From assembly GCA_034002665.1 (NCBI GenBank), contig JAVFAA010000001.1, forward strand, positions 300,748-364,747: a DNA stretch of 64,000 nt. The letters are read 5' to 3'. Below are positions 6,421-51,229 of this stretch, one piece after another (position 1 is the stretch's first letter; the number at the start of each line of letters is the position of its first letter). The stretch comes from Dissulfurispiraceae bacterium (GTDB taxonomy: Bacteria; Nitrospirota; Thermodesulfovibrionia; Thermodesulfovibrionales; Dissulfurispiraceae). The position numbers were made by a program, and so were the translations under genes. A model generated the notes under the pieces. It had not been told where the DNA came from. It saw nothing but the letters and a program-made list of their open reading frames with translations, and did not search any database.

Positions 6421-6548
6421 TTATTAAATTAAATAAATAAATATTTGCGAGTGGAGGTCTTGTCTCTGGCATAATCCAGTTGTTGACTCATACATATAAA
6501 TGAGGCATATTAATACATATGATTTAGCATATATGTGGGGAGATTCTT

Positions 6549-34321: not shown

Positions 34322-35290
34322 ATGACACATCATGATAAATTTAAACGCGTGCTCTGGTTTGACAGCCAGGTAAAACACCAAAGGCATCCCAATGCAGGTA
34401 ATATTGCTGCACACTTTGAGGTGTCTTTAAGAACCGCACAAAGAGATATTGGTTATCTCAGAGATGATCTTAACGCTCCGCTGCATTTTAACCGGTCAAA
34501 AAACGGCTACTGCTACACTGATGAGACCTTTTCACTCCCTGCCTGCTGGCTTAATGAAGACAATGTAATAGCCCTCGCTCTGTCTGCCAGGCTCGCCTCA
34601 ACAATCCCTGATAAAGAGATAAAAAATGATCTCTCAGGAATAATACAAAGAGTCCTCTGCATATTCAGCAGCGCAACAGGGCTTAACACTGAGGCGCTCT
34701 CAGAAAAGGTTTCAGTAAAAAATGTAGAGTACGCAGCTATTGACGAACAAATATTTCATGCAGTAGTAAAAGCATTGTTCGATGCCTGCCCGATCAGCAT
34801 AACCTATTACTCGCCGCACAAAAACCAGACAACAGAGCGTACCATAATGCCGCTCCATCTGATGCACTATATGGGCAGCTGGCATCTCATAGCCTTCTGC
34901 TCATCCAGAAAAGATCTGCGTAATTTCAGCATATCCAGAATAAAATCCATACAGTTGTCAGACAGGATAATAAAAGTTCCTAAATCCATTGGTTCAATAA
35001 AAAACTATATACGAAGGCACTTTGGCATAATGCAGGGCGGTAGAACGCAAAATGTAAGATTAAAAATATCATCATCCATAGCAGCTTGGGTGAGTGAGCA
35101 GATATGGCACCCTGAGCAGAAGATGACATACTCAAAAGACGGCTCAATCGAACTTTCATTGCCTGTCGGTGATTTCAGAGAAATAAGACGCCGCATCCTG
35201 AGCTACGGTGCTGATATAGAAGTGCTGGAACCCAGAGAACTCAAAAAGGACATTAAAAACGAGATCTTGAGGATGGCTAAAAATATTTAG
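34322..35290 (+). CDS. HTH + WYL-domain transcriptional regulator
   Basis: 322 aa with an N-terminal HTH (IAAHFEVSLRTAQRDIGYLR) and a central WYL-type domain (ITYYSPHKNQTTERTIMPLHLMHYMGSWHLIAFCSSRKDLRNFSISRI). Confidence 0.8.
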   Translation: MTHHDKFKRVLWFDSQVKHQRHPNAGNIAAHFEVSLRTAQRDIGYLRDDLNAPLHFNRSKNGYCYTDETFSLPACWLNEDNVIALALSARLASTIPDKEIKNDLSGIIQRVLCIFSSATGLNTEALSEKVSVKNVEYAAIDEQIFHAVVKALFDACPISITYYSPHKNQTTERTIMPLHLMHYMGSWHLIAFCSSRKDLRNFSISRIKSIQLSDRIIKVPKSIGSIKNYIRRHFGIMQGGRTQNVRLKISSSIAAWVSEQIWHPEQKMTYSKDGSIELSLPVGDFREIRRRILSYGADIEVLEPRELKKDIKNEILRMAKNI

Positions 35291-35327: not shown

Positions 35328-35418
35328 ATTTTAGTTAAAGAACCGTTTGCCGCAGTTTGAGCTTGTTGTTAGCAGACGAGCATTAATAAGAAATGTTTCT
35401 AAAATAACGAGGTTAAAT

Positions 35419-35748
35419 ATGGATACACATCTTGCAGTATTTAAAGGCAGACAGATAAGGCGGACACTTCACAATAATGAATGGTGGTTTTCGGTTGCTG
35501 ACATTGTGGAAGCTTTGACCGACACCAGAAACGCGACAGATTACATCAAGAAAATACGTCTTCGTGATGAGGAGTTAGCCAAAGGGTGGGGACAAATTGT
35601 CACCCTCCTTTCAATGGAAACATCTGGTGGCAGGCAAAAGATTAACTGTGCCAATACCGAGGGTGTCTTCCGAATAATCCAGTCTGTGCCATTACCTAAA
35701 GCGGTCTTTGATCTTACGTTGGCTATTCATGGAAGGAGAACATTATGA
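35419..35748 (+). CDS. Bro-N domain protein (short/truncated)
   Basis: [49 protein letters not shown] matches the Bro-N pattern. The ATG at 35419 has an upstream GAGG. Its stop overlaps the next gene's start (ATGA). Confidence 0.6.
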
Positions 35749-36260
35749 CTACCACGCTTCCTACTGAGGTCATCGAGAAAAAGATACTCCTCATCCGGGA
35801 AGAAAAAGTCATGCTCGATGCCGACCTTGCAGAGTTATACGGGGTAGAGACCAAAATGCTCGTCAGAGCAGTTAAGAGGAATGCCGAGCGCTTCCCGGCA
35901 GACTTCATGATCCAGCTCGATATGAACGAGTTCGACAACTTGAGGTTCCAATTTGGCACCTCAAGCCGCTGGGGTGGCCGCCGGTATCTTCCGTATGCCT
36001 TTACCGAACAAGGAGTTGCCATGCTCTCCAGTGTCCTGAACAGCAAGCGCGCCGTGCAGGTGAACATAGAGATCATGCGTGCATTTGTGAAGCTCCGACA
36101 AATGCTCTCGTCCAATGCAGAACTGGCGCGCAGGCTCAATACGCTCGAAAAGAAATACGACTCCCAGTTCAAGGCAGTCTTTGACGCGATCCGGCAGCTC
36201 ATGATACCTCCGGAGCCGAAGAAAAAGAAAATCGGCTTTAAACGTGAGGTTGAAGAATGA
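35745..36260 (+). CDS. ORF6N (KilA-N-related) domain protein
   Basis: 171 aa. [60 protein letters not shown] is the typical ORF6N signature. The gene is GC-richer than its flanks. Confidence 0.8.
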
Positions 36261-36466
36261 GACCAGTCTATAAGAGCAGCAAAGTGACCGGCACTGCACA
36301 GAAAGACCTTGAAAAAAAGACCGGTAAAAAGGTTGTTTCTTCAGAGAACTATTTGACTGAGACGGAAAGGCTGAAGAGGATAGAGAGAAAGAAGTAGTGA
36401 ATAACTGCTCAAGCAGTATAGCGGTTTAAACGGATTAAGTAGTTTAAGCTTGTTTTTAGTAAGAGA

Positions 36467-36546
36467 GGACATTGAAAACGAGATTTTAAAGATGGCTAAA
36501 AATATTTAACAGCCCTGACATAAATTGGCATAGTGGGTGTGGTAGG
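36467..36546. repeat. Direct repeat copy 2 (relic WYL-gene 3' end, about 100 bp upstream of cas12a)
   Basis: It encodes ..DIENEILKMAKNI-stop, versus DIKNEILRMAKNI-stop in the intact gene. It aligns to 35248-35327. Confidence 0.8.
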
Positions 36547-36647
36547 CTGGAAGAGATGAGGTGGAGATGAATGAAAAAAGCAGCAGAACTAAAGCCTAAC
36601 AAGTTTTAGCTGATCAATATATCTTATATAGTAAAAGGAGATAACGC

Positions 36648-39600
36648 ATGGATAACAAGGGGCTTTTTGACAATTTTACAAATCAGTACCAAGTTTCAAA
36701 AACGCTTCGTTTTGAGCTTAAACCACAGGGTAAAACAGCAGAAACTATTAAAGCAAAAGGTTTTTTGGATAGGGACTATAAAAGAGCAGAAGATTATAAG
36801 AGAGCAAAAAAACTTATTGATGAATACCATAAGGACTTTATAGAAAAGGCACTTTCTGATAAAAAGTTATCCAGCCTTGAACAATATTATGAAGAATATA
36901 CGAGTTTGATGTCTAAGCCCATTGGAGAAAGAGATTCAAAAAAATTCGCTGGTATTAACGATGCTATGCGTAAGGAGATTGGAGAATGGCTGAAAGATAA
37001 CCCTCTGAAAGACGAAAAAAAGCTAATTCAGGAAATAGTTCCTGAGTTTTTAAGAAACCAGGGGAGAGATGAAGATGCAGAGGTGTTGTTAAGTTTTAAG
37101 GGGTTTACAACATATTTTAAAGGCTTTAATGAAAATAGAGAAAATATCTATACAAATAAAGAACAGTCAACTGCTATTGCATATAGGATTGTTGATGAAA
37201 ATCTGCCAAGATTTGTAGCAAATCTTTATACCTTTAATGATCGTTTAAGAAATCACCAGATCGACTTTTCAGAAGTTGAAAGTCTGATTGAGACAGAATT
37301 TAGTGGCGCTAAATTGGAAGATGTTTTTACTATCGCATATTTCAATTATTGTCTTACTCAAAAAGGAATTGACCGCTACAATGCTGTAATCGGCGGTAAA
37401 ACTGATTTCAACGGGAAGAAAATTCAAGGAATAAATGAAAAAATAAATCTTTTTAGACAGAGAGAAAAACTATCTCCTAAACAGGCTCCACTTTTAACCG
37501 TGCTTTATAAACAGATATTGAGTGATAGAGTAAGTCTTTCTTTTTTACCTGAAAAGTTCAAATCAGCAAATGAATTGGTTGCCGCAATAAGAGATTTTTA
37601 TTCAGAAGGCATTAATGGGTTTATAAAAGATGGACAAAAAAGTAATGTGATGGATGAAATAGAGAACCTATTTGCCAAAAAACTTAATCCTAATGATTGC
37701 GATCTATCTAAAGTTCATCTACAAAGCAGTTTTTTAACTGTTCTTTCGCATCAGTTGTTTGGAGATTTTAGTGTAATCAAAGATGCATTAAACGCATATA
37801 TTGAAAGTACATTCAAAACTAAAAAGGAAAAAGAAAAACAGAACAAAAGAAGATACTACACCATTGAGGAAATTGAGGCAGCATTAAAACAATATGTTCA
37901 GGATACAGAAATTGATAACAAACAAAAGACAAAAGAAATTTTAGATCAGGCAAATCCAATTATATATTATCTCAATGCACTTGTTAACAATGTCGAGATA
38001 GATGGCAAAAAACAGAAAGTCAATATTATTGCACATTTCAGAAGCCTGCAAGAAAATATACACAATGTTCTTGATAAAGATTATCGGTCTAATAGTGAAC
38101 TCCTTAGTGACAAAGGACATATCGCTGCAATTAAGAATTATCTTGACAGCTATAATGTTGTACTGCATTTTATCAAAGCGCTTTCTGTTCCGTCTGTCGC
38201 AGACAAAGAGATGGATCTTGTTGAAAAAGATGCACTCTACGCTGAATTTGAGGAGTTGTTATCACAACTTCAACTCGTTGTGCCGCTTTATAACAAAGTA
38301 CGAAACTTTATAACTCAAAAGCCATATTCAGTAGAAAAGTATAAATTGAACTTTGATAATGTCACTCTGCTTGATGGTTGGGATGTTAACAAAGAATCTG
38401 ATAATACATGTGTTATTCTGTGTAAAGACAGCTGCTACTATTTGGCTATTATGGATAAAAAACATAGCAGTATTTTTCGGGACATCAAGAGCACTGCTGA
38501 TGATGTGGAATGTTACGAAAAAATGTTTTACAAGTTATTGCCGGGTCCAAATAAAATGCTGCCAAAGGTGTTTTTTTCTAGCAGCAGGATTGAAGAATTT
38601 GCGCCATCTGCAGAGCTGCTAAATAAATATAAGGCTGGCACTCATAAAAAAGGAGATAATTTCTTACTCAGCGACTGTCATGCCCTTATTGATTTCTTCA
38701 AATCATCAATAGCTAAACATGAAGATTGGAAACAATTCAATTTTGATTTCTCTCCTACCAGTGCCTACCGTGACATTAGCGATTTTTACAAAGAGGTAGC
38801 ACACCAAGGATATAAGATCACTTTTAATAGGGTATCTGCCAAATATGTGGATCAGCTTGTTGCTGAAGGCAAATTATATCTCTTTCAAATTTATAATAAA
38901 GACTTTTCAGCTTATAGCAAGGGCAAACCAAGCCTATATACTCTTTATTGGAAAGCTGTTTTTGATCCTGAAAACCTCCAAGATGTTGTTGTCAAACTAA
39001 ATGGTGAGGCAGAGGTCTTTTTCAGACAAGCATCAATACCAGAAGGGCTAAAAACAGTGCATCCAGAAAACATACCTATCGACAACAAAAGCCCCTATAA
39101 TCCCAAGAAGCAGAGCGTATTTAAATACAAAATCATTAAAGATAAGAGATACACTGAGGATAAGTTTGCTTTTCATGTGTCTATAACGCTTAATTTTAAA
39201 GCAGGAGATGAGTACAAATTCAACGACAGGGTTAAGCAGGCTATAGGCGAATTGCCTGTTGATGATTTAAGGATAATAGGCATAGACAGGGGGGAGAGGC
39301 ATCTTGCTTACTATTCACTTATCAATTCTAAAGGAGAGATACTCAAACAAGATTCATTTAACATTATTGAGAATGAGGTTAAAGGCGCTAAATACAGAAC
39401 CGACTACCATGCAAGTCTTGTTGCCAGAGAAGAAGAAAGAGATAAAAATAGAAAGTCCTGGGGTGCGATCGAAACAATCAAAGAGCTTAAAGAGGGGTAT
39501 CTCTCACAGGTTGTGCATAAAATCGCTAAGTTGATGATTGAGCATAATGCTGTTGTTGCTCTCGAAGACCTCAACTTTGGGTTTAAACGCGGCAGAATGA

Positions 39601-40445
39601 AGGTTGAACGACAAGTGTATCAGAAGCTCGAAAAGATGCTGATAGACAAGCTGAACTACCTCGTCTTCAAGGATAGAGAGCATAGAAATAAAGGGGGCAT
39701 TTTAAATGCCTACCAGCTTGCAAATAAATTTGATAGTTTCAAAGCAATAGGTAAACAGACCGGATTTCTCTTTTATGTGCCTGCTGCTAATACCAGTAAA
39801 ATAGATTTTGCTACCGGATTTGTAAACCTTTTATACCCTAAATATGAAAACGAAAAACAGGCTAAGGATTTCTTCAGCAAATTTAAGGGCATAAAGTATA
39901 ATTCTGGTAAAGACTATTTTGAATTTAAAATTGATTACAACAGTGTGAGAACTAATGGTGCAGAGAGTTTGAAAAACAGCATATGGACAATCTGTACCAT
40001 TGGAAAAGAACGGTTTCAGTATTATCCAACAACAAAAGAATACAAGAGTGTTGATGTTACCACTGAGATTAAGTCGTTGCTTTCAAATAAGGGTATAGAA
40101 TTTGAAATCGGTAAAGATATACAAGACAGCATTGTAAATTTGGGCGACACGAAGCTCTACAAAAATCTTGTTTTTTACCTTAAACTTGTTTTGCAAATGA
40201 GATACACAGATGGTCAGGGCAGGGATTTTATACTTTCTCCGGTTGCAAATGCTGATGGAAATTTCTTCTGTTCTGAAAAAGCTTTAAACGCCGAACCAAA
40301 AGATGCAGATGCAAATGGAGCGTATCATATTGCTTTGAAGGGCTTACTGCTTATGCACAAAATTAAAAATGGTGAGAGCAAACTGGCTATAAGCAATAAG
40401 GAATGGTATGACTTTGTTCAGGATAAGGCATATAAATCTAAATAA
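36648..40445 (+). CDS. cas12a: CRISPR-associated endonuclease Cas12a (Cpf1), type V-A effector
   Basis: 1265 aa with a hallmark N-terminus FTNQYQVSKTLRFELKPQGKT. RuvC-I is IGIDRGERHLAY (Asp codon 39285-39287). A bridge-helix-like segment reads WGAIETIKELKEGYLSQVVHKI. RuvC-II is VALEDLNFGFK (Glu codon 39564-39566) and RuvC-III is DADANGAYHIALKG (from 40302). There is no HNH motif. An AAGGAG RBS lies upstream. Confidence 0.97.
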   Translation: MDNKGLFDNFTNQYQVSKTLRFELKPQGKTAETIKAKGFLDRDYKRAEDYKRAKKLIDEYHKDFIEKALSDKKLSSLEQYYEEYTSLMSKPIGERDSKKFAGINDAMRKEIGEWLKDNPLKDEKKLIQEIVPEFLRNQGRDEDAEVLLSFKGFTTYFKGFNENRENIYTNKEQSTAIAYRIVDENLPRFVANLYTFNDRLRNHQIDFSEVESLIETEFSGAKLEDVFTIAYFNYCLTQKGIDRYNAVIGGKTDFNGKKIQGINEKINLFRQREKLSPKQAPLLTVLYKQILSDRVSLSFLPEKFKSANELVAAIRDFYSEGINGFIKDGQKSNVMDEIENLFAKKLNPNDCDLSKVHLQSSFLTVLSHQLFGDFSVIKDALNAYIESTFKTKKEKEKQNKRRYYTIEEIEAALKQYVQDTEIDNKQKTKEILDQANPIIYYLNALVNNVEIDGKKQKVNIIAHFRSLQENIHNVLDKDYRSNSELLSDKGHIAAIKNYLDSYNVVLHFIKALSVPSVADKEMDLVEKDALYAEFEELLSQLQLVVPLYNKVRNFITQKPYSVEKYKLNFDNVTLLDGWDVNKESDNTCVILCKDSCYYLAIMDKKHSSIFRDIKSTADDVECYEKMFYKLLPGPNKMLPKVFFSSSRIEEFAPSAELLNKYKAGTHKKGDNFLLSDCHALIDFFKSSIAKHEDWKQFNFDFSPTSAYRDISDFYKEVAHQGYKITFNRVSAKYVDQLVAEGKLYLFQIYNKDFSAYSKGKPSLYTLYWKAVFDPENLQDVVVKLNGEAEVFFRQASIPEGLKTVHPENIPIDNKSPYNPKKQSVFKYKIIKDKRYTEDKFAFHVSITLNFKAGDEYKFNDRVKQAIGELPVDDLRIIGIDRGERHLAYYSLINSKGEILKQDSFNIIENEVKGAKYRTDYHASLVAREEERDKNRKSWGAIETIKELKEGYLSQVVHKIAKLMIEHNAVVALEDLNFGFKRGRMKVERQVYQKLEKMLIDKLNYLVFKDREHRNKGGILNAYQLANKFDSFKAIGKQTGFLFYVPAANTSKIDFATGFVNLLYPKYENEKQAKDFFSKFKGIKYNSGKDYFEFKIDYNSVRTNGAESLKNSIWTICTIGKERFQYYPTTKEYKSVDVTTEIKSLLSNKGIEFEIGKDIQDSIVNLGDTKLYKNLVFYLKLVLQMRYTDGQGRDFILSPVANADGNFFCSEKALNAEPKDADANGAYHIALKGLLLMHKIKNGESKLAISNKEWYDFVQDKAYKSK

Positions 40446-41002
40446 TGGAGAGTTACATACCGATATCGTTTTTGAATGATTATATATTTTGCCCGAGGTC
40501 AATATATTTTCATCAGCTGTATGGCAAGCTTGACACACAGCTATACCAGCAAAAGCCTCAAATATCTGGCAAGGCAGCACACGCTGCAATTGATGGCAAA
40601 ACATACTCAACGCGCAGAAATATATTACAAGGTGTTGAGATATATTCAGAGCGTTACGGAATATGCGGCAAAATAGACACTTTTGATGTTGATATCGGAA
40701 AACTGGTCGAAAGAAAACGGCAGATAAAGACTATTTATGATGGATATATATTTCAGGTTTATGCTCAATATCATGCACTTGTTGAGATGGGATATAAGGT
40801 TAAAACTATAGATCTGTATGATATAAGCCATAACAAAAGCCATGCTGTTGCACTGCCGGAATCATGCCCTGAAATGCAGCAGAAGTTTGAAGAGCTTATA
40901 GATAAAATTAACCGATTTGACATGTATGCATCTGATTTTTGCCCTAATCAGTCAAAGTGCAGCAATTGTATATACTCAAACCTTTGTGATTATGGATTAT
41001 GA
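40445..41002 (+). CDS. cas4: CRISPR-associated exonuclease Cas4
   Basis: 185 aa with an N-terminal Cys (YIFCPRS), a RecB-like D..ExK motif (GKIDTFD..LVERKRQ) and a C-terminal CxxxxxCxxCxxxxxC cluster (CPNQSKCSNCIYSNLC). It overlaps the cas12a stop by 1 nt. Confidence 0.9.
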   Translation: MESYIPISFLNDYIFCPRSIYFHQLYGKLDTQLYQQKPQISGKAAHAAIDGKTYSTRRNILQGVEIYSERYGICGKIDTFDVDIGKLVERKRQIKTIYDGYIFQVYAQYHALVEMGYKVKTIDLYDISHNKSHAVALPESCPEMQQKFEELIDKINRFDMYASDFCPNQSKCSNCIYSNLCDYGL

Positions 41003-41964
41003 TGAGTCTGCCTGACTTTAGAGAAAAGAATATAGTCATCTGCTTTGCTTCTGAAGGGCAGAAGGTGTCATTCAAGAACGATAATCTTGTCATTAAAGAT
41101 GCTGAAGAGCAGATTGTTTTGCAAACAACCTGTCACAAAATCTTCTCTTTGTGGCTTGCGGGCAATATATCCCTAACATCAGGAATTTTGGAGAAGAGTA
41201 AGAAATTTGGATTTTCGATCTATATGCTATCAAACAGCTGCAGGCCATATGGATTATGGAGCAGCGCTACTGAGGGTAACTTTGTATTGCGCAAAAAACA
41301 ATATGACTATTCAGAATTGGATATAGCAAGACATCTGGTAAATAATAAAATATTTAATCAGACCGAACTGCTTAGAAGCATCCGTAATAAGCAAAATATA
41401 ACAAAGACAGCCATTGGTCAAATGTTGAAATATGCAGAAATGGCAGTTGAGGCAGAAGATCTGCATCAGCTTCTTGGCATTGAGGGAGTATCTTCCCGTC
41501 TGTTTTTCAGCAATTGGTTTGTGGATATGCCCTGGACAGGCAGAAAACCAAGAGCAAAGATGGATATTATCAATACTACGCTGGATATTGGCTATACATA
41601 TCTATTCAATTTTGTTGAATGCTTGCTAAATCTGTATGGCTTTGATTTGTATAAAGGGGTTTATCATCAATCTTTTTATCAAAGGAAATCTCTGGTTTGC
41701 GATATTGTTGAGCCGTTCAGATGCATTATTGATAAGCAGGTTAAACGAGCATATGGTTTAAAACAGCTCCAACCGGATGACTTTAGGCAGCAAAAAGGTC
41801 AATTTTTTTTAAAGATAGAAAAGAACAAAGATTATACACGCTGGCTTATACAAAATATTCTTGAACACAAAGAATATATCTTTAGTTATGTTCAAGACTA
41901 TTATCGTTGTTTTATGCGAGACAAGACGATTGACCAGTATCCTGTTTTCAGGATAAAAGATTAG
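40999..41964 (+). CDS. cas1: CRISPR-associated endonuclease Cas1
   Basis: 321 aa with a Cas1-like C-terminal half (LLGIEGVSSRLFF.., NTTLDIGYTYLFN.., GVYHQSFYQRKSLVCDIVEPFR). It has a 4-nt overlap with cas4. Confidence 0.93.
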   Translation: MMSLPDFREKNIVICFASEGQKVSFKNDNLVIKDAEEQIVLQTTCHKIFSLWLAGNISLTSGILEKSKKFGFSIYMLSNSCRPYGLWSSATEGNFVLRKKQYDYSELDIARHLVNNKIFNQTELLRSIRNKQNITKTAIGQMLKYAEMAVEAEDLHQLLGIEGVSSRLFFSNWFVDMPWTGRKPRAKMDIINTTLDIGYTYLFNFVECLLNLYGFDLYKGVYHQSFYQRKSLVCDIVEPFRCIIDKQVKRAYGLKQLQPDDFRQQKGQFFLKIEKNKDYTRWLIQNILEHKEYIFSYVQDYYRCFMRDKTIDQYPVFRIKD

Positions 41965-41973
41965 ATTGTTTTT

Positions 41974-42246
41974 ATGCTTCTTATTTCTTATGATATATCT
42001 GATAACAAATTGCGGACTGAATTTTCCAAATATCTGAAAAAGTTTGGTGGAAGGCTGCAATACTCGGTCTTTGAAATCAGAAACAGCGAAAGGGTGCTTG
42101 AGAATATCACAACGCACATTACGCACTATTTTGAGAAAAAGTTTTCTCAAACTGACAGCATAATGATCTTTAGGCTTAGCAAGCAGTGCAAGATTACCCG
42201 CTTTGGTTATGCAAAAAATGACGAGACCGATCTTTTGATTGTCTGA
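41974..42246 (+). CDS. cas2: CRISPR-associated endoribonuclease Cas2
   Basis: 90 aa. MLLISYDISDNKLRTEFSKYLKKFGGRLQYSVFEI is the typical Cas2 N-terminus. Confidence 0.9.
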   Translation: MLLISYDISDNKLRTEFSKYLKKFGGRLQYSVFEIRNSERVLENITTHITHYFEKKFSQTDSIMIFRLSKQCKITRFGYAKNDETDLLIV

Positions 42247-42383
42247 TCTGCAAACCTCAGTCTTAATGTTTTAAAAGGTGCTTTTAATGGCTGCAAACCA
42301 GTACAAAAAACATAAAGTGTCAAAAAATATGTCAGAAAACCTGAGTTTTTCTGCAAAAAATGGGTGCTTTTTAGACAACACCT
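42247..42383 (+). promoter_or_regulatory. CRISPR leader
   Basis: 137-bp A/T-rich noncoding stretch between the cas2 stop and the first repeat. It contains repeated CTGCAAA motifs (42248, 42291, 42351). Confidence 0.5.
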
Positions 42384-43566
42384 GCCTAAAGCACCTAATG
42401 AATTTCTACTATCGTAGATTCTGCTGGTTATCAGCTTGACAGTCGCAGCCTAAAGCACCTAATGAATTTCTACTATCGTAGATGGTTTATTCATTAAGTA
42501 GCTTGCAATCAAAGCCTAAAGCACCTAATGAATTTCTACTATCGTAGATTCCTTTGTTGCCACCTCGCTGAATTCGAGCCTAAAGCACCTAATGAATTTC
42601 TACTATCGTAGATTCTATCGGCTGCCCAAAGGTAGTAACCCCGCCTAAAGCACCTAATGAATTTCTACTATCGTAGATCTTACTACCGGGAGGGGAACGC
42701 TTGCATTAGGCCTAAAGCACCTAATGAATTTCTACTATCGTAGATGAATTTGAGGACTGGCAGACAGTCGCGCCTAAAGCACCTAATGAATTTCTACTAT
42801 CGTAGATTAAATGTGCTATGTGCCCATATTCGTATGCCTAAAGCACCTAATGAATTTCTACTATCGTAGATCTCTTGGGGTTGTATATTTTTCCCGGAGC
42901 CTAAAGCACCTAATGAATTTCTACTATCGTAGATCGCTAAGTGCATGCGTTGCACTGATGGCCTAAAGCACCTAATGAATTTCTACTATCGTAGATAACT
43001 TGATCATGTGATCCCGCTCAACGCCTAAAGCACCTAATGAATTTCTACTATCGTAGATAATTTGATGCGTTTCTTTAACTGGCCGCCTAAAGCACCTAAT
43101 GAATTTCTACTATCGTAGATTTCTCCTGCTGTTGTTCATCAGGTTTCTTTGCCTAAAGCACCTAATGAATTTCTACTATCGTAGATTTGCTGGCTAATTA
43201 CAAGCTTAGGAGGAGCCTAAAGCACCTAATGAATTTCTACTATCGTAGATCGCTAAGTGCATGCGTTGCACTGATGGCCTAAAGCACCTAATGAATTTCT
43301 ACTATCGTAGATAACTTGATCATGTGATCCCGCTCAACGCCTAAAGCACCTAATGAATTTCTACTATCGTAGATAATTTGATGCGTTTCTTTAACTGGCC
43401 GCCTAAAGCACCTAATGAATTTCTACTATCGTAGATTTCTCCTGCTGTTGTTCATCAGGTTTCTTTGCCTAAAGCACCTAATGAATTTCTACTATCGTAG
43501 ATTTGCTGGCTAATTACAAGCTTAGGAGGAGCCTAAAGCACCTAATGAATTTCTACTATTGTAGAT
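42384..43566 (+). CRISPR. Type V-A CRISPR array, 19 repeats / 18 spacers (13 unique)
   Basis: The 36-nt repeat GCCTAAAGCACCTAATGAATTTCTACTATCGTAGAT starts at 42384, 42448, 42514, 42578, 42643, 42710, 42772, 42836, 42899, 42961, 43023, 43085, 43151, 43215, 43277, 43339, 43401, 43467 and 43531. Spacers are 26-31 nt. The last repeat has one C>T change at 43560. Confidence 0.98.
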
Positions 43567-43660
43567 ATGAACCTGTCTGAAGATGTCTTCTCAGCTTTTC
43601 CATGCTATAATTGTTCATATACAATCTGGTTGGTGAATATGCCTGTCAAGGAGGTGTGTT

Positions 43661-43828
43661 ATGCCTGCTTATGAGTATGAGTGCAAGGAATGCAAAAAGG
43701 TTTTTATGGTCTTTTTCTCCCTCAAGGAGTTTGATTCAAATCCAAGAATCAAGTGCCCTCACTGCGAAAGCGATAATACTGTGAGAAGAATATCAGGATT
43801 TTTCGCTAAAACCAGCAAAAAATCATAG
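43661..43828 (+). CDS. FmdB-family zinc-ribbon protein
   Basis: 55 aa, below the track cutoff. MPAYEYECKECKKVF..KCPHCES is the typical CxxC..CxxC putative regulatory zinc ribbon. An AAGGAGG RBS lies at 43648-43654. Confidence 0.7.
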   Translation: MPAYEYECKECKKVFMVFFSLKEFDSNPRIKCPHCESDNTVRRISGFFAKTSKKS

Positions 43829-43944
43829 CTGCATACCTGAAACAGCGGTTTTTGGACTATTTGCTTTTCTGATGACAGGGTTTTGCGACCTGATTATCAA
43901 AAAGCTCTTTAATTATTTGTTATATTGTGATAAAGTTAATCCTG

Positions 43945-44838
43945 ATGGGTAAGATTCTCAAGCAAAAACGGGAAGAGCTTGGCGAAGAACTCAGGGATAT
44001 CTCTCTGGTGGTGCGTATCAGAACAACCTATCTCAAGGCGATAGAGGAAGAAAATTTTGAGAAGCTTCCTGCTGAAGTTTACGCTAAAGGTTACATACGC
44101 GAATACGCCCGCTATCTGAATGTGCCTTTTGCTGATGCTGTGTCAGCATATCAGCAGTATCTTGAAGATTCCAGAGACAAGCTGGCTGCACTGTCATATA
44201 ATCCTGTTGGCTCCTATGCTTCCAAATGCTATGTTCCATCAACATCAAAACCTTCCCTGTTTCTTCCTAAACTTTTTATATTATGCATTTCAGTTGCCAT
44301 TTTGTTTGGTATATATGTTTTTGTCAGGGACAATTGGCAGGTTATGGGCAGGGATACTGTGGCAGAGATGCCCAAGCCAATGCAGCCTCCGGCTGAGACG
44401 CTGGTTGCACAGCCGCATGCTCAGGCAGATCATCAGTCTATGCCTGCAAAGCAGAGTATTCCTCAAAGTGCTTCTGCACAGGATTCTGCTTCAGTTTCTT
44501 TAAATCAGGCTGATGCAGCAAAACCCCAGACCGTAAAGCCAAAGTATAATCTTGTTGTCAGTGCAACAGATCAGGTCTGGCTCGAGATAAATAGTGATGA
44601 CAAGACCAGAAACGATATCATCATGAATGCTGGAGAGACCCAGAGCTTCAGAGCAGATGGTAAATTCAAGATCAAGATTGGTAATGCTGCAGGCGTAAGG
44701 TTTAGTTTTAATGGCAGAGAGATCGGACCTCTTGGGGCCAAGGGAGAGGTTGTGTATCTGACCCTACCAGAGTCTCAGCAGTCTGCTGAAAGGCCTTTAT
44801 TGCCAGGCAGTCAGGCCAGCGTTCCAGTACACGACTGA
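43945..44838 (+). CDS. rodZ: RodZ-like cytoskeleton-associated HTH membrane protein
   Basis: It has an N-terminal HTH (LKQKREELGEELRDISLVVRIRTTYLKAIEEENFEKLP..YAKGYIREYARYL), a single TM and a C-terminal DUF4115-like domain. An alternative GTG start lies at 43927. Confidence 0.75.
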   Translation: MGKILKQKREELGEELRDISLVVRIRTTYLKAIEEENFEKLPAEVYAKGYIREYARYLNVPFADAVSAYQQYLEDSRDKLAALSYNPVGSYASKCYVPSTSKPSLFLPKLFILCISVAILFGIYVFVRDNWQVMGRDTVAEMPKPMQPPAETLVAQPHAQADHQSMPAKQSIPQSASAQDSASVSLNQADAAKPQTVKPKYNLVVSATDQVWLEINSDDKTRNDIIMNAGETQSFRADGKFKIKIGNAAGVRFSFNGREIGPLGAKGEVVYLTLPESQQSAERPLLPGSQASVPVHD

Positions 44839-44849
44839 CAGTCTGTCTT

Positions 44850-46763
44850 ATGAAAGCCGGCAGACTTAGCGACTTTATCAATAAAAAGACTCTTATCATC
44901 TTTTTTCTTCAATTCTTCCTGATTACCGCATTTCTTGGACACAGGCATTGGCGCAATTCTGACGCTGAGTGTGTAAGGTGCCACTCAGATTCAAAAAAGA
45001 TGGAGCTGCTTGGCTATTCCCAGTTTGTTGTTACAAGAGCGGCAGCTCAGGAACAGAGCAGGCATCCGAATGTGAAGTGCCACCAGTGTCATCTCGGCAA
45101 TGGCAGGGCAAAGAGTGCGGATGAAGCTCATAAGGGTATGCTCAAGGCAATGCTTATTGGCTACGACTATAATGTGCTTGACCGCAAGACAACAGCCCCT
45201 GACTCTATGATGCCAAGAGGTGATGACAAGATAAGGGAGATGCTCCCGGTGGTTACAGAGGATGGAGAGACATTTACTCATCCTGATGTGAAAAATGTGC
45301 TATGGCATGACAGGGATCCGGTTACCCTGGGTTATGATCCTAAAATAGCTCAGAAGACATGCGGCACATCCAACTGCCATCCGGAGATGGTTGATCAGTT
45401 CAGCAAAACACATATGGGCGGCAATATGAGGCAGCGCAGCATGAAGACATGGACAGGAGAGTTTGGGCCTCACAACTGCGGACCTTCATTTGCTGATCTG
45501 CCGCCAGTAGAGATTTTTAAAAAGACAGGTTTTGACTTTAAGAATACATCAAGGATCGCTGATAATCTGAATGTACCATTCACAAAAGAGCAGGCAATGG
45601 CAAAGCAGAAGGCATGCAATGTATGCCATACAGGATGTCTCGACTGCCACTATGCTCCGGACAAGGAAAAGGGTGTGCACCACTTTGTGAACAAGCCGCC
45701 TGCTCAGAGCTGCGGAGGCTACGGCAGAGGCACTAATATATGCCATCCCGGAGCTATGCAGAGCCGCAGGGGGGAAACATTCATAGGCGGAGACTATTCG
45801 CTGCCAACCGGCATGAAGCCTGATGTGCATTACACGAAAGGCGTACATTGCGTTGAATGCCATATGACAGGTCCAAAGGGCATGGGTGATAAACAGCGCA
45901 AGGCAACCTGTCAGGACTGCCATGTTGAAATAGAGGAGGCTCATAAAAAGAGTGTTCATAAAAATCTCGACTGTGCTGCATGCCATATCTCAGAACTGCG
46001 GGGGTACCAGATAACTATTTGGGGGCCCGGCAAGGTGGCTGACCAGCCTAATCCATTCAAAAAATATTCGCTCTATTACGGAATTCAGAGCCCGCCGATA
46101 TTGTTTAAAGACCAGAAAGGAAAATGGATGCCGGTCAAGGTCTGGCCGCACAGCGTTGGAAATATAAAAAATGAGGTTAAGCCCTCATCAGGCGTGATGT
46201 TCAGACCTACAGGCGGAGAAACAAGAGATGCATATTATGTGATGGGCACTTTTGATGCAAAGGCTAACAACAGACATCTGCTCTGGCTGGAGATGCAGCA
46301 GGCAGCTCATCCATTCGGCAGACCGAGGGATTGTTCAAGTTGTCATGCTTCAACTCTCCAGAAATCAATGTCACGATGGGAGTATATGGATGATCAGGGC
46401 GCTCTTGAGCAGTTCAGGGGCGGGTACAATATAGTTGCTGATTCAAAGAGCCTCAGGATAGAGAATCTTGCAGCTGATTCAAGGATAGTGCCTGCGGATG
46501 GATATAAGCTGGAGGATTTTGCATCCTGGCTGTTCTTCAGGGATAAGTGGGTTGTGCCCGGAGATTTTACGATAAAGGCAGATCCTATCCAGTATAAAAA
46601 ACATTCTGCATATTTTGAAAAGACAAAGAGGGATATCTCAGCAATAGATAAACGGACAGGGAGGTTCAGCAGGAAGATGGCAAAAGATTATGCCGGAGCT
46701 AAAGGCGCTGCCCTGCATAATAGTATGGATGCTGATTCCCTGTTAAAAGGGTTCAGAAAATAA
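44850..46763 (+). CDS. Membrane-anchored multihaem c-type cytochrome
   Basis: 637 aa with an N-terminal TM/signal anchor. There are eight canonical CxxCH motifs (CVRCH, CHQCH, CNVCH, CLDCH, CVECH, CQDCH, CAACH, CSSCH) plus CGTSNCH and CGGYGRGTNICH. Confidence 0.85.
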   Translation: MKAGRLSDFINKKTLIIFFLQFFLITAFLGHRHWRNSDAECVRCHSDSKKMELLGYSQFVVTRAAAQEQSRHPNVKCHQCHLGNGRAKSADEAHKGMLKAMLIGYDYNVLDRKTTAPDSMMPRGDDKIREMLPVVTEDGETFTHPDVKNVLWHDRDPVTLGYDPKIAQKTCGTSNCHPEMVDQFSKTHMGGNMRQRSMKTWTGEFGPHNCGPSFADLPPVEIFKKTGFDFKNTSRIADNLNVPFTKEQAMAKQKACNVCHTGCLDCHYAPDKEKGVHHFVNKPPAQSCGGYGRGTNICHPGAMQSRRGETFIGGDYSLPTGMKPDVHYTKGVHCVECHMTGPKGMGDKQRKATCQDCHVEIEEAHKKSVHKNLDCAACHISELRGYQITIWGPGKVADQPNPFKKYSLYYGIQSPPILFKDQKGKWMPVKVWPHSVGNIKNEVKPSSGVMFRPTGGETRDAYYVMGTFDAKANNRHLLWLEMQQAAHPFGRPRDCSSCHASTLQKSMSRWEYMDDQGALEQFRGGYNIVADSKSLRIENLAADSRIVPADGYKLEDFASWLFFRDKWVVPGDFTIKADPIQYKKHSAYFEKTKRDISAIDKRTGRFSRKMAKDYAGAKGAALHNSMDADSLLKGFRK

Positions 46764-46778
46764 TATTCTTCAGCATCA

Positions 46779-48914
46779 ATGAACAGGAGCAATATGCTTT
46801 CACCAAAAGATTTGTTGAACTTTTTACGGGTTAAAGCCATGAGGCCGCTCAGCTTCAGGGAGATATGCGACAAGCTTAAACTGAGCAGTCCTGAGCGCCG
46901 TTTGCTCAGAAAGCTTGTGAAGCAGCTTGTTGCGTCAGGGGACATGGTAAAGACGAGGAGCGGACTTTACGGACTGCCGCAGGAGATGAGCCTTATCACA
47001 GGCCATTTCGAGGCGCACAGGGATGGCTTTGGCTTTGTTATACAGGATAAGCCTGGACAGCGCGACATCTTCATTCCTGCCAGAAAGACGCTTGGAGCCA
47101 TGGACAACGACAGAGTTGTAGCGCGAATCGAAAATGCTGAGAAGCGTGACGGAAGAGTTGTCAGGATAATACAGAGGGCGCATACAAAGATAACAGGAAT
47201 ATTTGAGTCAGACAGAACAGGTTTTTATGTGCGCCCAAAAAAGAGATCAGTCCAGTTTGATCTCTATATCCCTGCCTCAGAAAAGGGCAGGGCAAAGGAT
47301 GGAGACCCTGTCATAGCAGAGGTTGTCTCTTATCCAACAGAATCGAGGCCGGCTGCAGGCAGGATTATAAAGGTGTTGAAGAGCCCGGAGACTCCGCGCG
47401 AGGATGTGGAGGCAATTATTGAGGGTTTGCATCTGCCGAAAAGATTTTCAGCAGAAGTTCTCAAAGAGGCGCGTTCTCTGTCAATGACAGAGAAGCCCGG
47501 AAGCCTTGCCAGAAAAGATCTGCGCGATATTGTGACAATGACTATTGATGGCGAGCGCGCCAGGGATTTTGATGATGCTGTATCAATCAGAAAGAAAAAA
47601 GACGGATGGACTCTCTGGGTGCATATTGCTGATGTAGGGTATTTTGTCGAGTGGGGCAGCTTGCTTGATGAAGATGCCAGGGCAAGGGGCACGAGTGTCT
47701 ATTTTCCTGACCATGTTATCCCGATGCTGCCAAAGGAGCTTTCAGAAGACCTCTGCAGCCTGAAGCCGGGAGTTGAGAGATTCGCATTCAGCGTTGAACT
47801 CGATTTTGACTCTTCAGGCTCAAGAACAGATGCTTCGTTTTATCCCAGTCTTATAGTAAGCAACGAGCGCATGACTTACTCCTCCGTAAAAAAAATTATA
47901 CTCGACCGCGATGCTCATGAGCGTGAAAGATACCAGCATATCACGCATGATCTTGATCTCATGTCTGAGCTTGCGGGATTGATAAAGGATAAGCGTTCTA
48001 AAAGGGGAAGTCTTGATTTTGATCTGCCTGAGCCGGAGGTGCTGCTCGACATACAGGGCAATCCTGAGGCAATAGTGGCAGCAGAGAGAACCTTTGCGCA
48101 TATGCTTATAGAGGAGTTCATGATAGCGGCAAATGAGGCTGTTGCTGAATATCTCGAGAGCAAGGGTGTGCCTTCACTGTACAGGATACATGAGGAGCCT
48201 GATCTTTCCAAGATGCAGGATGTTGCAAGGGCTGTGAGGCCTCTCGGCATATCTGTATCAGCCACAGGACTAAAGCCGCAAGACTTTGCGCAGATTCTGA
48301 GCTCTGCACGCAGAAAAAAAGATTTTGCAGGGTCAGTCAAGGAAGAGATACTGAACCACATAATACTGCGAAGCCTGAAGCAGGCGAGATACTCCACTCT
48401 GAATGTCGGCCATTTCGGACTCGCATCAAAATCATATACGCACTTCACATCACCAATAAGAAGATATCCTGATCTGGTTGTGCACAGAATACTCAGAGAA
48501 CTGATAGGATCAGGCAGGCTCGATTCGGAATCTTCAGGAATGCTTGCCAGCATACTGCCTGATATTGCCTCAAGTTCATCAATGGCAGAGCGCAGGGCTG
48601 ATGAGGCTGAAATGGATGTTGTTGCAGCCATGAAGGCCTGGTTCATGCGCGACAAGATTGGCGATGAATTTGAGGGCAGGGTTATATCTGTTGCGCAGCA
48701 TGGTCTGAAGATCAGGCTCATTGATTTTTACATAGAGGGTTTTCTGCATGTCTCCTACATGAATGATGACTACTACCAATATGATGAAAAAAATATATGC
48801 CTGACCGGGCTTCATAAAAAGAGGCGCTTTGCCATCGGCAGCAGTATGAATGTGAGGATAGACAGAGTGGATATCGAGGAGCGCGAGATTGTGCTCGGCA
48901 TGGCTGGCAAGTGA
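46779..48914 (+). CDS. rnr: Ribonuclease R
   Basis: 711 aa with N-terminal HTH/cold-shock-like domains, an RNB catalytic domain (TIDGERARDFDDAVS.., HFGLASKSYTHFTSPIRRYPDL) and a C-terminal S1 domain. Confidence 0.93.
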   Translation: MNRSNMLSPKDLLNFLRVKAMRPLSFREICDKLKLSSPERRLLRKLVKQLVASGDMVKTRSGLYGLPQEMSLITGHFEAHRDGFGFVIQDKPGQRDIFIPARKTLGAMDNDRVVARIENAEKRDGRVVRIIQRAHTKITGIFESDRTGFYVRPKKRSVQFDLYIPASEKGRAKDGDPVIAEVVSYPTESRPAAGRIIKVLKSPETPREDVEAIIEGLHLPKRFSAEVLKEARSLSMTEKPGSLARKDLRDIVTMTIDGERARDFDDAVSIRKKKDGWTLWVHIADVGYFVEWGSLLDEDARARGTSVYFPDHVIPMLPKELSEDLCSLKPGVERFAFSVELDFDSSGSRTDASFYPSLIVSNERMTYSSVKKIILDRDAHERERYQHITHDLDLMSELAGLIKDKRSKRGSLDFDLPEPEVLLDIQGNPEAIVAAERTFAHMLIEEFMIAANEAVAEYLESKGVPSLYRIHEEPDLSKMQDVARAVRPLGISVSATGLKPQDFAQILSSARRKKDFAGSVKEEILNHIILRSLKQARYSTLNVGHFGLASKSYTHFTSPIRRYPDLVVHRILRELIGSGRLDSESSGMLASILPDIASSSSMAERRADEAEMDVVAAMKAWFMRDKIGDEFEGRVISVAQHGLKIRLIDFYIEGFLHVSYMNDDYYQYDEKNICLTGLHKKRRFAIGSSMNVRIDRVDIEEREIVLGMAGK

Positions 48915-49735
48915 TGAAGCGAAGCCCTGTTCAGCTCAAAAAAGCTCTTGATCAGCTGTATTCCGAATACGACTTTGAAGGCCGGATAAAACATGATCCC
49001 ATTGAGTTTCCAAAGTCATTCAAGCATGCACGCGACATAGAGGCGGCTGGATTCATTGCATCCTGTTTTGCTTATGGCAGGGTGGAGCTCTTCAAGCCTG
49101 TGATCTCATCCATTCTCTCCCTGATGGGATGCAGTCCGTACAGGTTTCTGCTCAGCTTTGAGCGCAGGCGCGACGCGAAGCTCTTTTCAGGCATTAAGTA
49201 CAGGTTCAATACTGAATCTGACATCACAGGGTTGATTGCTGCACTCTCTAAAACATATCTAAAATACGGCAGCCTTGAATCACTCTTTAAAAAATATTTC
49301 AGCCCTGATGACCTGAATGTCAGCAGAGGACTCGAGGGCATGACAGGGGAGCTGATAAAGAGATCACGCGCAGCTTCGTCGCCCGGGTTTCTCCAGTTTT
49401 TTCCGCTGCCATCAAAAGGCAGCGCATGCAAGAGGATGAACCTCTTTTTAAGATGGATGGTGCGGGACAGAGACATTGATTTTGGAATATGGAAGGGGAT
49501 TCCAAAAAACAGATTGATAATTCCGCTTGATACCCATATCGCCAGAATCTCGAGATGCATAGGTCTGACAAAAAGAGGGGCTGCTGACTGGAAGACAGCT
49601 GTTGAGATAACATCTGAACTTAAAAAATTCGATCCAGAAGATCCTCTTAAGTATGATTTTTCACTCTGCCACCAGGGCATCTCAAGGGTCTGCGAAAAGT
49701 CAAACTGCATTAATTGTCAATTATTCATTTCTTAG
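48911..49735 (+). CDS. TIGR02757/DUF2400-family protein
   Basis: 274 aa. The motifs GSACKRMNLFLRWMVR..D.G.W..I....LIIPLDTH are as I recall for this family. It overlaps the rnr stop by 4 nt. Confidence 0.65.
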   Translation: MMKRSPVQLKKALDQLYSEYDFEGRIKHDPIEFPKSFKHARDIEAAGFIASCFAYGRVELFKPVISSILSLMGCSPYRFLLSFERRRDAKLFSGIKYRFNTESDITGLIAALSKTYLKYGSLESLFKKYFSPDDLNVSRGLEGMTGELIKRSRAASSPGFLQFFPLPSKGSACKRMNLFLRWMVRDRDIDFGIWKGIPKNRLIIPLDTHIARISRCIGLTKRGAADWKTAVEITSELKKFDPEDPLKYDFSLCHQGISRVCEKSNCINCQLFIS

Positions 49736-49746
49736 AGGGAGGGGGC

Positions 49747-49780
49747 CGCCGTTCCGCTGGAGGGGGTTAGCGGAACGGCG
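49747..49780. terminator. Strong GC hairpin between convergent genes (possible bidirectional terminator)
   Basis: A 12-bp perfect stem CGCCGTTCCGCT / AGCGGAACGGCG flanks a 10-nt loop. No clear U-tract follows on either side. Confidence 0.4.
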
Positions 49781-49897
49781 ATTGAGTGGCAAAACTCTGC
49801 TCTCTATTCATACTCTCAAAAGCTGTAAAACCCTATACACAATGTTTCTTAGATATAGATTAGCAATAAAAGATGAAGGAATTATGAAAGGATTAAC

Positions 49898-51229
49898 TTA
49901 TTGATTTAGCTGGATATTATTTAATGCAAACAGCTTTTCTACTACCATGAAAGCCTCTTCTTTGGTCGAGATGCTGCCCAAAAGCACCAGATTGCCTATA
50001 TTTTTAATAGATTCTCCAATAAAAGGAGATGGATTGAGACTGAATTTCTTCATAATCTCCTCTCCTGTCACCAGAGGCAGCAGCGCTGCCCTGGGAAGAA
50101 ATATTTTCTGGAAGTAGCCTGTTATTAGACCGATAAATTGAATGAAATCAGCAGTTTCCTCTGGCCCCTCCTCTGCCTGCAGCTCCGCAAGTCCTGCTAT
50201 ACATGCTCCAAGAGGAGATCCTCCTGCAGAGAGTATCAGGCATACCATTTCTGTTTCACCAGGGTTTTTAGGTGCTGATTTATAGAGTGAAACTATCTCT
50301 TTTCTCGATTTTGCGAGAAATATTATGAGATCTGCCTCGCTGTTTGAGAGCTTAAGCCTCTCTGATGCTTTAGCAGCAGCAGAAGAATCAGGCATCAGGG
50401 ATGAGAATTTGAGGCAGAATATATTATGAAGCTCTGCTATATTCATAAGCAGCGGAAATTCCTCAGGTCTGCCGGCATCTAAAAAGGCTCTAAGGGCATC
50501 TTCTGTTGCTGTGTATCTGATGAGTGATTTGTCTGAATTACCGTTGATCTCGGGAATGGCTGACTCCAGAAGCCCTGCTGCTGACATCTGGTGCATCACT
50601 TCTGCTGAATTATCAAGCTTGAATATCTGCTTCAGTTCTTCAACAATTCGTTCAGGGGCTGATCTGCTTATCGTATGCGAAAGCCTTGCTGCAGCAGCAG
50701 CAGTTTCAGGGTCGAGTGCAAAATTTAGAGTTCCGGCAAATCTGTACAATCTGAGCAGCCGCAGGGGATCATTCAGCAGATTCTTTTCAGAGATCATTCT
50801 TATTATTCTGTTGTCCAGATCTCTTCTGCCTCCAAATGGATCAATAATAATGTCTAAAAGTTCAGCGCTGCATGAGAGCTGTCCGGATGCAGCAGAAAGG
50901 GGTAATGCCATCGAGTTTATTGTTATGTCTCTTTGACCAAGGTCTTCATTAATGGCGCTGCCTTTTAGCCGGGATATGTCAATATGCCTGTTATGTTTAA
51001 CAATCCGTACTGTGTCGGTTTTGTTCTCAAAAGGCACTGCTGTGCAGCCTGTGAGCTTGGCAAATTCCTTTCCAAGACTGATAACATCAGCATTGACAGC
51101 AATATCAATGTCTTTGAGAGCAGTGCCTGAGATTATATCCCTGACCGCTCCTCCAACAAAAAAAGAGCTGTCCGTCAGGTTTTTTGAAGAAATAAAGTTT
51201 ATGAGTGATGACAACAGCGGATTCAGCAT
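49898..51229 (-). CDS. tRNA nucleotidyltransferase (CCA-adding) / poly(A) polymerase-family protein
   Basis: 443 aa with the N-terminal GGAVRDI..DIDIAV nucleotidyltransferase motif and RDITINSMA. Confidence 0.8.
   Translation of the reverse strand: MLNPLLSSLINFISSKNLTDSSFFVGGAVRDIISGTALKDIDIAVNADVISLGKEFAKLTGCTAVPFENKTDTVRIVKHNRHIDISRLKGSAINEDLGQRDITINSMALPLSAASGQLSCSAELLDIIIDPFGGRRDLDNRIIRMISEKNLLNDPLRLLRLYRFAGTLNFALDPETAAAAARLSHTISRSAPERIVEELKQIFKLDNSAEVMHQMSAAGLLESAIPEINGNSDKSLIRYTATEDALRAFLDAGRPEEFPLLMNIAELHNIFCLKFSSLMPDSSAAAKASERLKLSNSEADLIIFLAKSRKEIVSLYKSAPKNPGETEMVCLILSAGGSPLGACIAGLAELQAEEGPEETADFIQFIGLITGYFQKIFLPRAALLPLVTGEEIMKKFSLNPSPFIGESIKNIGNLVLLGSISTKEEAFMVVEKLFALNNIQLNQ

Follow-up and report, generated by a model that had tools for sequence, protein, structure and literature searches.

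A stretch of 64,000 nucleotides (nt) from the chromosome of an uncultured Dissulfurispiraceae bacterium (order Thermodesulfovibrionales, phylum Nitrospirota; GenBank assembly GCA_034002665.1, contig JAVFAA010000001.1, positions 300,748–364,747), hereafter the window, was analyzed for its clustered regularly interspaced short palindromic repeats (CRISPR) and CRISPR-associated (Cas) genes. Judged from its sequence, the region 36648–43566 on the + strand is almost certainly a canonical, complete class 2, type V-A CRISPR-Cas adaptive immune locus. The open reading frame (ORF) table and repeat finding revealed that it consisted of cas12a, cas4, cas1, cas2, a 137-nt leader and a repeat-spacer array. 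Gene content, domain set, residue conservation, repeat structure and the absence of an anti-repeat were all observed directly. The type V-A assignment had been proposed in a first-pass annotation of the same DNA, and it was borne out by the equivalog profile hidden Markov models (HMMs) for Cas12a, type V Cas4 and type V Cas1, the Pfam domain set, the PADLOC models, alignment to solved structures, and the repeat hairpin. The ORFs, motifs and array listed in that annotation could all be located in the ORF table and by direct reading. The locus had also been described as intact, which agrees with the four ORFs being full length against the HMMs and with the conservation of the catalytic residues.

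Domain architecture and catalytic residues of Cas12a

The cas12a (cpf1) gene (36648–40445, + strand) encodes a protein of 1265 amino acids (aa) with the N-terminus MDNKGLFDNFTNQYQVSKTLRFELKPQGKT, for which matches were obtained with TIGR04330, Pfam, PADLOC and the PDB. The profile-HMM check suggested for this protein was run, and TIGR04330, the NCBIfam Cas12a equivalog, matched it end to end with 1303.7 bits against a cutoff of 300 (residues 7–1260 corresponding to positions 1–1287 of the 1288-position profile). Fifteen PADLOC Cas12a models matched the effector, the top score being 1446 bits. The Pfam scan revealed REC1 (51–290), REC2 (307–556), PI (632–722), RuvC (856–1261) and NUC (1052–1211) domains and reported no HNH domain, in agreement with the earlier reading of the protein. 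A RuvC nuclease split into three distant segments could be read at IGIDRGERH (877–885), VALEDLNFG (970–978) and DADANGAYH (1219–1227), as had been described. The Lys/Arg-rich helix noted after RuvC-I was likewise present; it has the sequence WGAIETIKELKEGYLSQVVHKI, begins at W938 and aligns to the bridge-helix region of FnCas12a near W971.

The PDB search of the effector returned ReChb (PDB 8qwd/8qwe/8qwf) as the top match, with 1326 bits and 53% identity over the full length (E = 0). ReChb is a laboratory-resurrected ancestral Cas12a and is synthetic, and it was the best-scoring solved structure for the window protein. FnCas12a from Francisella novicida U112 (PDB 5mga, 5ng6, 6i1k) was matched with 1030 bits (E = 0), residues 3–1260 of the query aligning to residues 2–1300 of the chain, and identity to FnCas12a was 52–54% across residues 524–1260 (the C-terminal 740 residues). 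Further matches were Lb2Cas12a and LbCas12a and, more distantly, AsCas12a (about 607 bits, in four aligned stretches). The alignments demonstrated collinearity of the effector with the solved structures of FnCas12a and LbCas12a. FnCas12a is 35 residues longer than the window protein and comes from a gammaproteobacterium, whereas the present host is an environmental Nitrospirota bacterium.

Segment alignment with FnCas12a revealed identical residues at the examined positions of known function. These were the RuvC triad D880, E973 and D1221 (Fn D917, E1006 and D1255), the Nuc arginine R1185 (Fn R1218), the residues of the pre-CRISPR RNA (pre-crRNA) RNase in the WED domain H805, K814 and K831 (Fn H843, K852 and K869), the lysines K582, K636 and K640 contacting the protospacer adjacent motif (PAM) (Fn K613, K667 and K671), and the bridge-helix tryptophan W938 (Fn W971). 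The functional roles of the mapped FnCas12a residues are those established by published structural and biochemical work.

Adaptation genes and operon layout

The adaptation module of cas4, cas1 and cas2 was of the type V (PREFRAN) lineage, all three genes scoring above cutoff at near full length. The type V cas4 (40445–41002, + strand; 185 aa) matched TIGR04328 (cas4_PREFRAN) with 227.5 bits against a cutoff of 70, covering positions 1–176 of the 178 in the profile. The type V cas1 (40999–41964, + strand; 321 aa) matched TIGR04329 (cas1_PREFRAN) with 414.8 bits against a cutoff of 300, covering positions 1–316 of 317. For cas2 (41974–42246, + strand; 90 aa), TIGR01573 gave 45 bits against a cutoff of 24.5 and Pfam CRISPR_Cas2 gave 57.7 bits.

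Translational coupling had been proposed for the whole operon. The genes were found to overlap at the cas12a/cas4 junction (TAATG), where there is a 1-nt overlap with the cas12a stop codon, and at the cas4/cas1 junction (ATGA), where the overlap is 4 nt; cas2, in contrast, is adjacent rather than overlapping and starts after a 9-nt gap behind the cas1 stop codon. By direct reading, the intergenic region at 36261–36647 (+ strand) upstream of cas12a is the presumed promoter region, and a ribosome-binding site (AGGAG) lies 8 nt ahead of the cas12a ATG. The promoter and terminator scan returned sites no more frequently than in shuffled sequence; because there was no excess above chance, no promoter or terminator was assigned.

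CRISPR array, crRNA handle and leader

The CRISPR array (42384–43566, + strand), detected by Tandem Repeats Finder (TRF) and direct reading, consisted of 19 copies of a 36-nt repeat (GCCTAAAGCACCTAATGAATTTCTACTATCGTAGAT) separated by 18 spacers of 26–31 nt. A pattern count confirmed the originally reported same-strand array of 19 repeats with 13 distinct spacers, and 19 regularly spaced copies of a 36-mer cannot be chance. Eighteen of the 19 repeats were identical, while the terminal leader-distal repeat (43531–43566, + strand) carried one C-to-T substitution, resulting in a UAUU loop. At 42899–43530 (+ strand), a block of five repeat-spacer units (316 bp) occurs twice in exact tandem, as determined by string identity of 42899–43214 with 43215–43530 and a TRF period of 316. 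Spacers 9–13 are consequently the same as spacers 14–18, at the leader-distal end of the array. The duplication could have arisen by recombination between repeats, or it could be an assembly artefact.

The 3' 19 nt of the repeat form the crRNA handle, with a 5-bp stem (UCUAC/GUAGA) and a 4-nt loop (UAUC). Folding of the handle gave −4.1 kcal/mol (z = −6.6), and none of 200 shuffled sequences folded as well. All 19 repeats terminate in AATTTCTACTAT[C/T]GTAGAT, which agrees with the conserved V-A handle form AAUUUCUAC-loop-GUAGAU, and the hairpin is positioned directly 5' of every spacer on the strand of the cas genes. In the F. novicida U112 locus the order cas12a-cas4-cas1-cas2-array is the same, the repeat is also 36 nt long, and the spacers are of similar length to those found here; its handle loop is UGUU, as against UAUC in the window.

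The UAUC loop had been given prominence in the description of this ortholog, but the survey of other arrays showed that it is not distinctive. The exact handle AATTTCTACTATCGTAGAT was present in 83 genome stretches, 27 of which contained at least three copies, and it was distributed over arrays of Bacteroidota, Clostridia, Planctomycetota, Campylobacterota and Nitrospirota. The handle-bearing taxa included Prevotella, Paludibacteraceae, Lachnospiraceae, Helicobacteraceae and Chryseobacterium. Moreover, the handle is already in laboratory use as DR_v2 (TAATTTCTACTATCGTAGAT), a variant direct repeat for enAsCas12a in multiplexed guide arrays (PMC10504673). The DR_v2 handle equals the last 19 nt of the window repeat, although AsCas12a is a more distant ortholog with the native loop UCUU. 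This wide distribution together with the use of DR_v2 ruled out the UAUC loop as an unusual feature.

An A-rich leader of 137 nt (42247–42383, + strand) lies between cas2 and repeat 1. Its placement on the cas2 side is in keeping with the degenerate repeat at the distal end and with the hairpin lying directly 5' of the spacers. L086 and L087, the loci of the two closest relatives examined at locus level, encode Cas12a proteins that are 62% identical to the window protein. Their genes are arranged in the same order, and their repeat (GTCTAAAGCACCA[A/G]TGAAATTTCTACTATCGTAGAT) differs little from that of the window, ending in the same 3' 19 nt with the UAUC loop included. Comparison of the leaders of the three loci (window 42247–42383; L086 5938–6081; L087 13618–13754) revealed two conserved blocks, CAAACC..GTCTTAATG after cas2 and AAAA..GGTG..T..GA before repeat 1. 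As a reading of sequence conservation, these blocks are candidate promoter or integration signals.

Search for a trans-activating RNA

No reverse-complement copy of the repeat could be found within the whole window at up to 6 mismatches. The inverted matches to the repeat were only 19–20 nt long with 79–80% complementarity, were located inside coding sequence, and were at chance level. In addition, no Rfam family was matched in 36000–44000. Given the missing reverse-complement repeat and the chance level of the inverted matches, nothing suggests a trans-activating crRNA (tracrRNA), and the tracrRNA independence expected for the locus is in line with its sequence.

Proposed mechanism of interference and adaptation

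Transcription, processing, PAM recognition, staggered cutting and current activity of the locus can be proposed from what is known of FnCas12a, AsCas12a and LbCas12a. Transcription of the array would start on the leader side and run along the + strand. Cas12a would cut the pre-crRNA just 5' of the 3' hairpin of the repeat by means of the WED residues H805, K814 and K831, and the product would be a crRNA in which a handle of about 19 nt (AAUUUCUACUAUCGUAGAU) precedes the spacer, with no involvement of a tracrRNA. The Cas12a-crRNA complex would then read a 5' PAM through K582 and K640 and unwind the DNA; by analogy with the characterized orthologs, the PAM is probably T-rich (TTN/TTTV). Both strands would be cut, in a staggered manner, in the single RuvC site formed by D880, E973 and D1221, with help from the Nuc residue R1185. 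Cas4, Cas1 and Cas2 would add new spacers at the leader end.

Relatives in the public record

The exact 1265-aa protein is deposited as GenBank MDX9714146.1, where it is named Cas12a and assigned to a Dissulfurispiraceae metagenome-assembled genome (MAG), and the exact Cas1 sequence is deposited as MDX9714148.1. A literature search for Dissulfurispira together with Cas12a found no paper. The earlier description of the ortholog as probably uncharacterised is therefore correct in the experimental sense, since no publication was found, but not in the sense of a new protein, since it is already recognized and annotated in GenBank. At least 1413 homologs were present in the protein collection at E ≤ 1e-50, and the nearest protein outside its own 90% cluster was 64% identical. 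The nearest natural relatives were unnamed environmental Cas12a proteins (P0005–P0013; 60–64% identity, full length), which include the Nitrospinae MAG protein OGW03971.1. No experimentally characterised name occurs among these relatives.

Growth temperature was estimated from amino acid composition. The IVYWREL fraction of 35 neighbouring proteins was 0.387, corresponding to growth near 28 °C. A thermostable enzyme is not indicated, because this composition suggests a mesophile, and thermophily was ruled against.

The locus in a second strain and a sister species

The same locus was found at 99.88% identity in an independent sample (Logan SRR32942124), in which the three called genes were intact and full length. 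The start of a contig from the MAG of a sister species (L070, 1–7031; JAJFVG010000036.1, labelled Nitrospiraceae) lies within an array whose 36-nt repeat is identical to that of the window. This array contained four spacers unrelated to the spacers of the window and a decayed terminal repeat, and beyond the array the contig was syntenic with window 43650–50263 at 75–80% identity. The identical repeat, the syntenic site and the different spacers indicate that the array stayed at its chromosomal site while its spacers were replaced. Since none of the four spacers is shared, spacer turnover is suggested, and on this comparison of sequences it speaks in favour of past activity of the locus. With all genes full length, all catalytic residues intact and the repeats essentially identical, the locus may also be active at present.

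Genomic surroundings

The G+C content of the cassette was 36.1% (31–39% per kb), compared to 43.8% for the window and 44–49% for the flanks, which fits a horizontally acquired origin. A transcription regulator of the helix-turn-helix (HTH)-WYL-WCX type is encoded at 34322–35290 (+ strand), as revealed by Pfam (WYL, WCX and HTH_11) and by the PADLOC models for CRISPR-associated WYL proteins (129.8 and 115.1 bits). It lies about 1.4 kb upstream of cas12a with two genes between. No WYL gene was found upstream of cas12a in L087, whereas the contigs extend only about 330 nt upstream in L086 and about 350 nt in a further locus, L088. The WYL gene was accordingly rejected as a conserved part of the Cas12a subclade, in what is a weak test given the short upstream sequences of L086 and L088. 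Because L087 is without it and the other two loci are uninformative, the regulator is listed as a possible accessory only; it may belong to the locus, but its membership is uncertain.

The two genes between the regulator and cas12a encode a Bro-N protein (35347–35748; 133 aa) and an ORF6N protein (35745–36260; 171 aa), identified by Pfam. In PADLOC, the Bro-N protein matched PDC-S13 (101.8 bits) and the ORF6N protein matched PDC-S05 (198.5 bits), both of which are candidate defence families. The two genes overlap, and the pair may be a small remnant of a defence system or mobile element.

The array is followed directly by a gene for an FmdB-type CxxC zinc-ribbon protein of 55 aa (43661–43828; Pfam Zn_ribbon_8). 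This gene is conserved in the sister species and is probably unrelated to CRISPR. The downstream genes identified by Pfam are of the housekeeping type and include, besides the zinc ribbon, a RodZ-like protein. Further downstream, reading of the translations rather than a domain scan suggested a multihaem cytochrome and RNase R.

Evidence against the proposed reading and alternative interpretations

Several observations weigh against a locus of entirely canonical and active character. A search of phage and plasmid collections with the 13 distinct spacers joined in one query yielded no protospacer. Scans of IMG/VR, for which the PAM-proximal 22 nt of eight spacers were used, and of metagenomes yielded one partial match only, to spacer 3, in which all 22 PAM-proximal bases but just 1 of the remaining 6 were identical (23 of 28 in total). 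The match was located in a P2-like phage portal gene (Pfam Phage_portal), at 6517–6538 of an IMG/VR contig (L002) and at 420–441 of a JGI metagenome contig (L089). Its 5' flank, AAATCA, is not T-rich, and by rough estimate the chance of one exact 22-mer match across the scans is a few percent. Given this flank, and given that identity breaks off sharply beyond base 22, the match was not used to derive a PAM. The duplication, and not independent acquisition, accounts for five of the 18 spacers. In the effector, the position of Fn K677 is taken by Ser646, with Arg647 next to it, which was the sole difference noted in the residue mapping, and the PAM preference could therefore differ in detail from that of FnCas12a. 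As for self-targeting, no spacer matched elsewhere in the window at up to 5 mismatches.

These results are relevant to the possibility that the locus, although its sequence is intact, is currently silent or has ceased to acquire spacers, being a maintained or recently inactivated relic. Such a state would agree with the lack of a matching protospacer in the phage, plasmid, IMG/VR and metagenome searches, with the trailer-end third of the array being a duplication rather than new spacers, and with a promoter signal not above chance. It is nevertheless improbable, since an uncultured environmental lineage with poorly sampled viruses would be expected to lack matching protospacers in the collections, and since the four full-length ORFs with every catalytic residue conserved, the 18 identical repeats of 19, the second strain with the same intact genes at 99.88% identity, and the entirely different spacers behind the same repeat in the sister species all speak against it. 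Far less probable still, to a degree that it hardly needs consideration, is a misreading as V-A of a different type V subtype or of a nuclease-dead or transposon-associated Cas12. The observation in its favour was a weak secondary PADLOC match to Cas12e (37.8 bits) which covers residues 828–1005, that is, the shared RuvC segment only. The Cas12a models in contrast scored 1300–1446 bits over the full length, the catalytic triad was intact, there was no anti-repeat or tracrRNA candidate, and no Tn7-like genes were found among the neighbouring genes scanned. The full-length model scores and the structure matches thus refuted V-B, V-E and V-K as well as a nuclease-dead form.

The cassette could also be part of a horizontally acquired mobile element or defence island and serve conflict between elements rather than act as a long-standing system of the host. 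Its low G+C content relative to window and flanks, the phage-regulator-like Bro-N and ORF6N genes immediately upstream with their matches to PDC-S13 and PDC-S05, and the occurrence of its closest Cas12a relatives in other phyla (e.g., Nitrospinae and 'Deltaproteobacteria') would be compatible with such an origin. Low G+C content and patchy phylogeny are, however, usual for CRISPR-Cas loci. In the sister species, at only 75–80% nucleotide identity, an array with exactly this repeat occupies the corresponding position and is followed by the same housekeeping genes, and from this array shared in position and repeat it follows that the cassette predates the split of the two species. Moreover, the window contains no tRNA, no recognisable recombinase was found among the neighbours scanned, and no flanking direct repeat turned up. 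An element of this kind is thus unlikely, and a complete type V-A immune locus belonging to the host chromosome is the preferred reading.

Significance of the locus

Cas12a belongs to the most thoroughly studied CRISPR effectors. The present locus represents a known type and already has its annotation in GenBank, so that it has little consequence beyond correct annotation. In practice, it offers a further natural ortholog for screens of PAM range or editing properties. A shifted or relaxed PAM could exist in this ortholog, and the cas operon could be under the control of the HTH-WYL-WCX regulator, but this proposal is a speculative one with rather low odds of being right. Such a PAM could follow from the identity of at most 64% to other natural proteins, from Ser646/Arg647, and from ReChb being the nearest structure. 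ReChb is reported to accept the relaxed PAMs NYYN, NRYN and NYRN (PMC12724276). The score against ReChb is uninformative on the PAM of the window protein, because any Cas12a of the clade would be expected to match a consensus-like ancestor. If true, a shifted or relaxed PAM or WYL control would extend the knowledge of Cas12a usefully, though only by a small step. The locus also shows that, in a Dissulfurispiraceae lineage, the chromosomal position of a V-A array stays the same as its set of spacers is exchanged.

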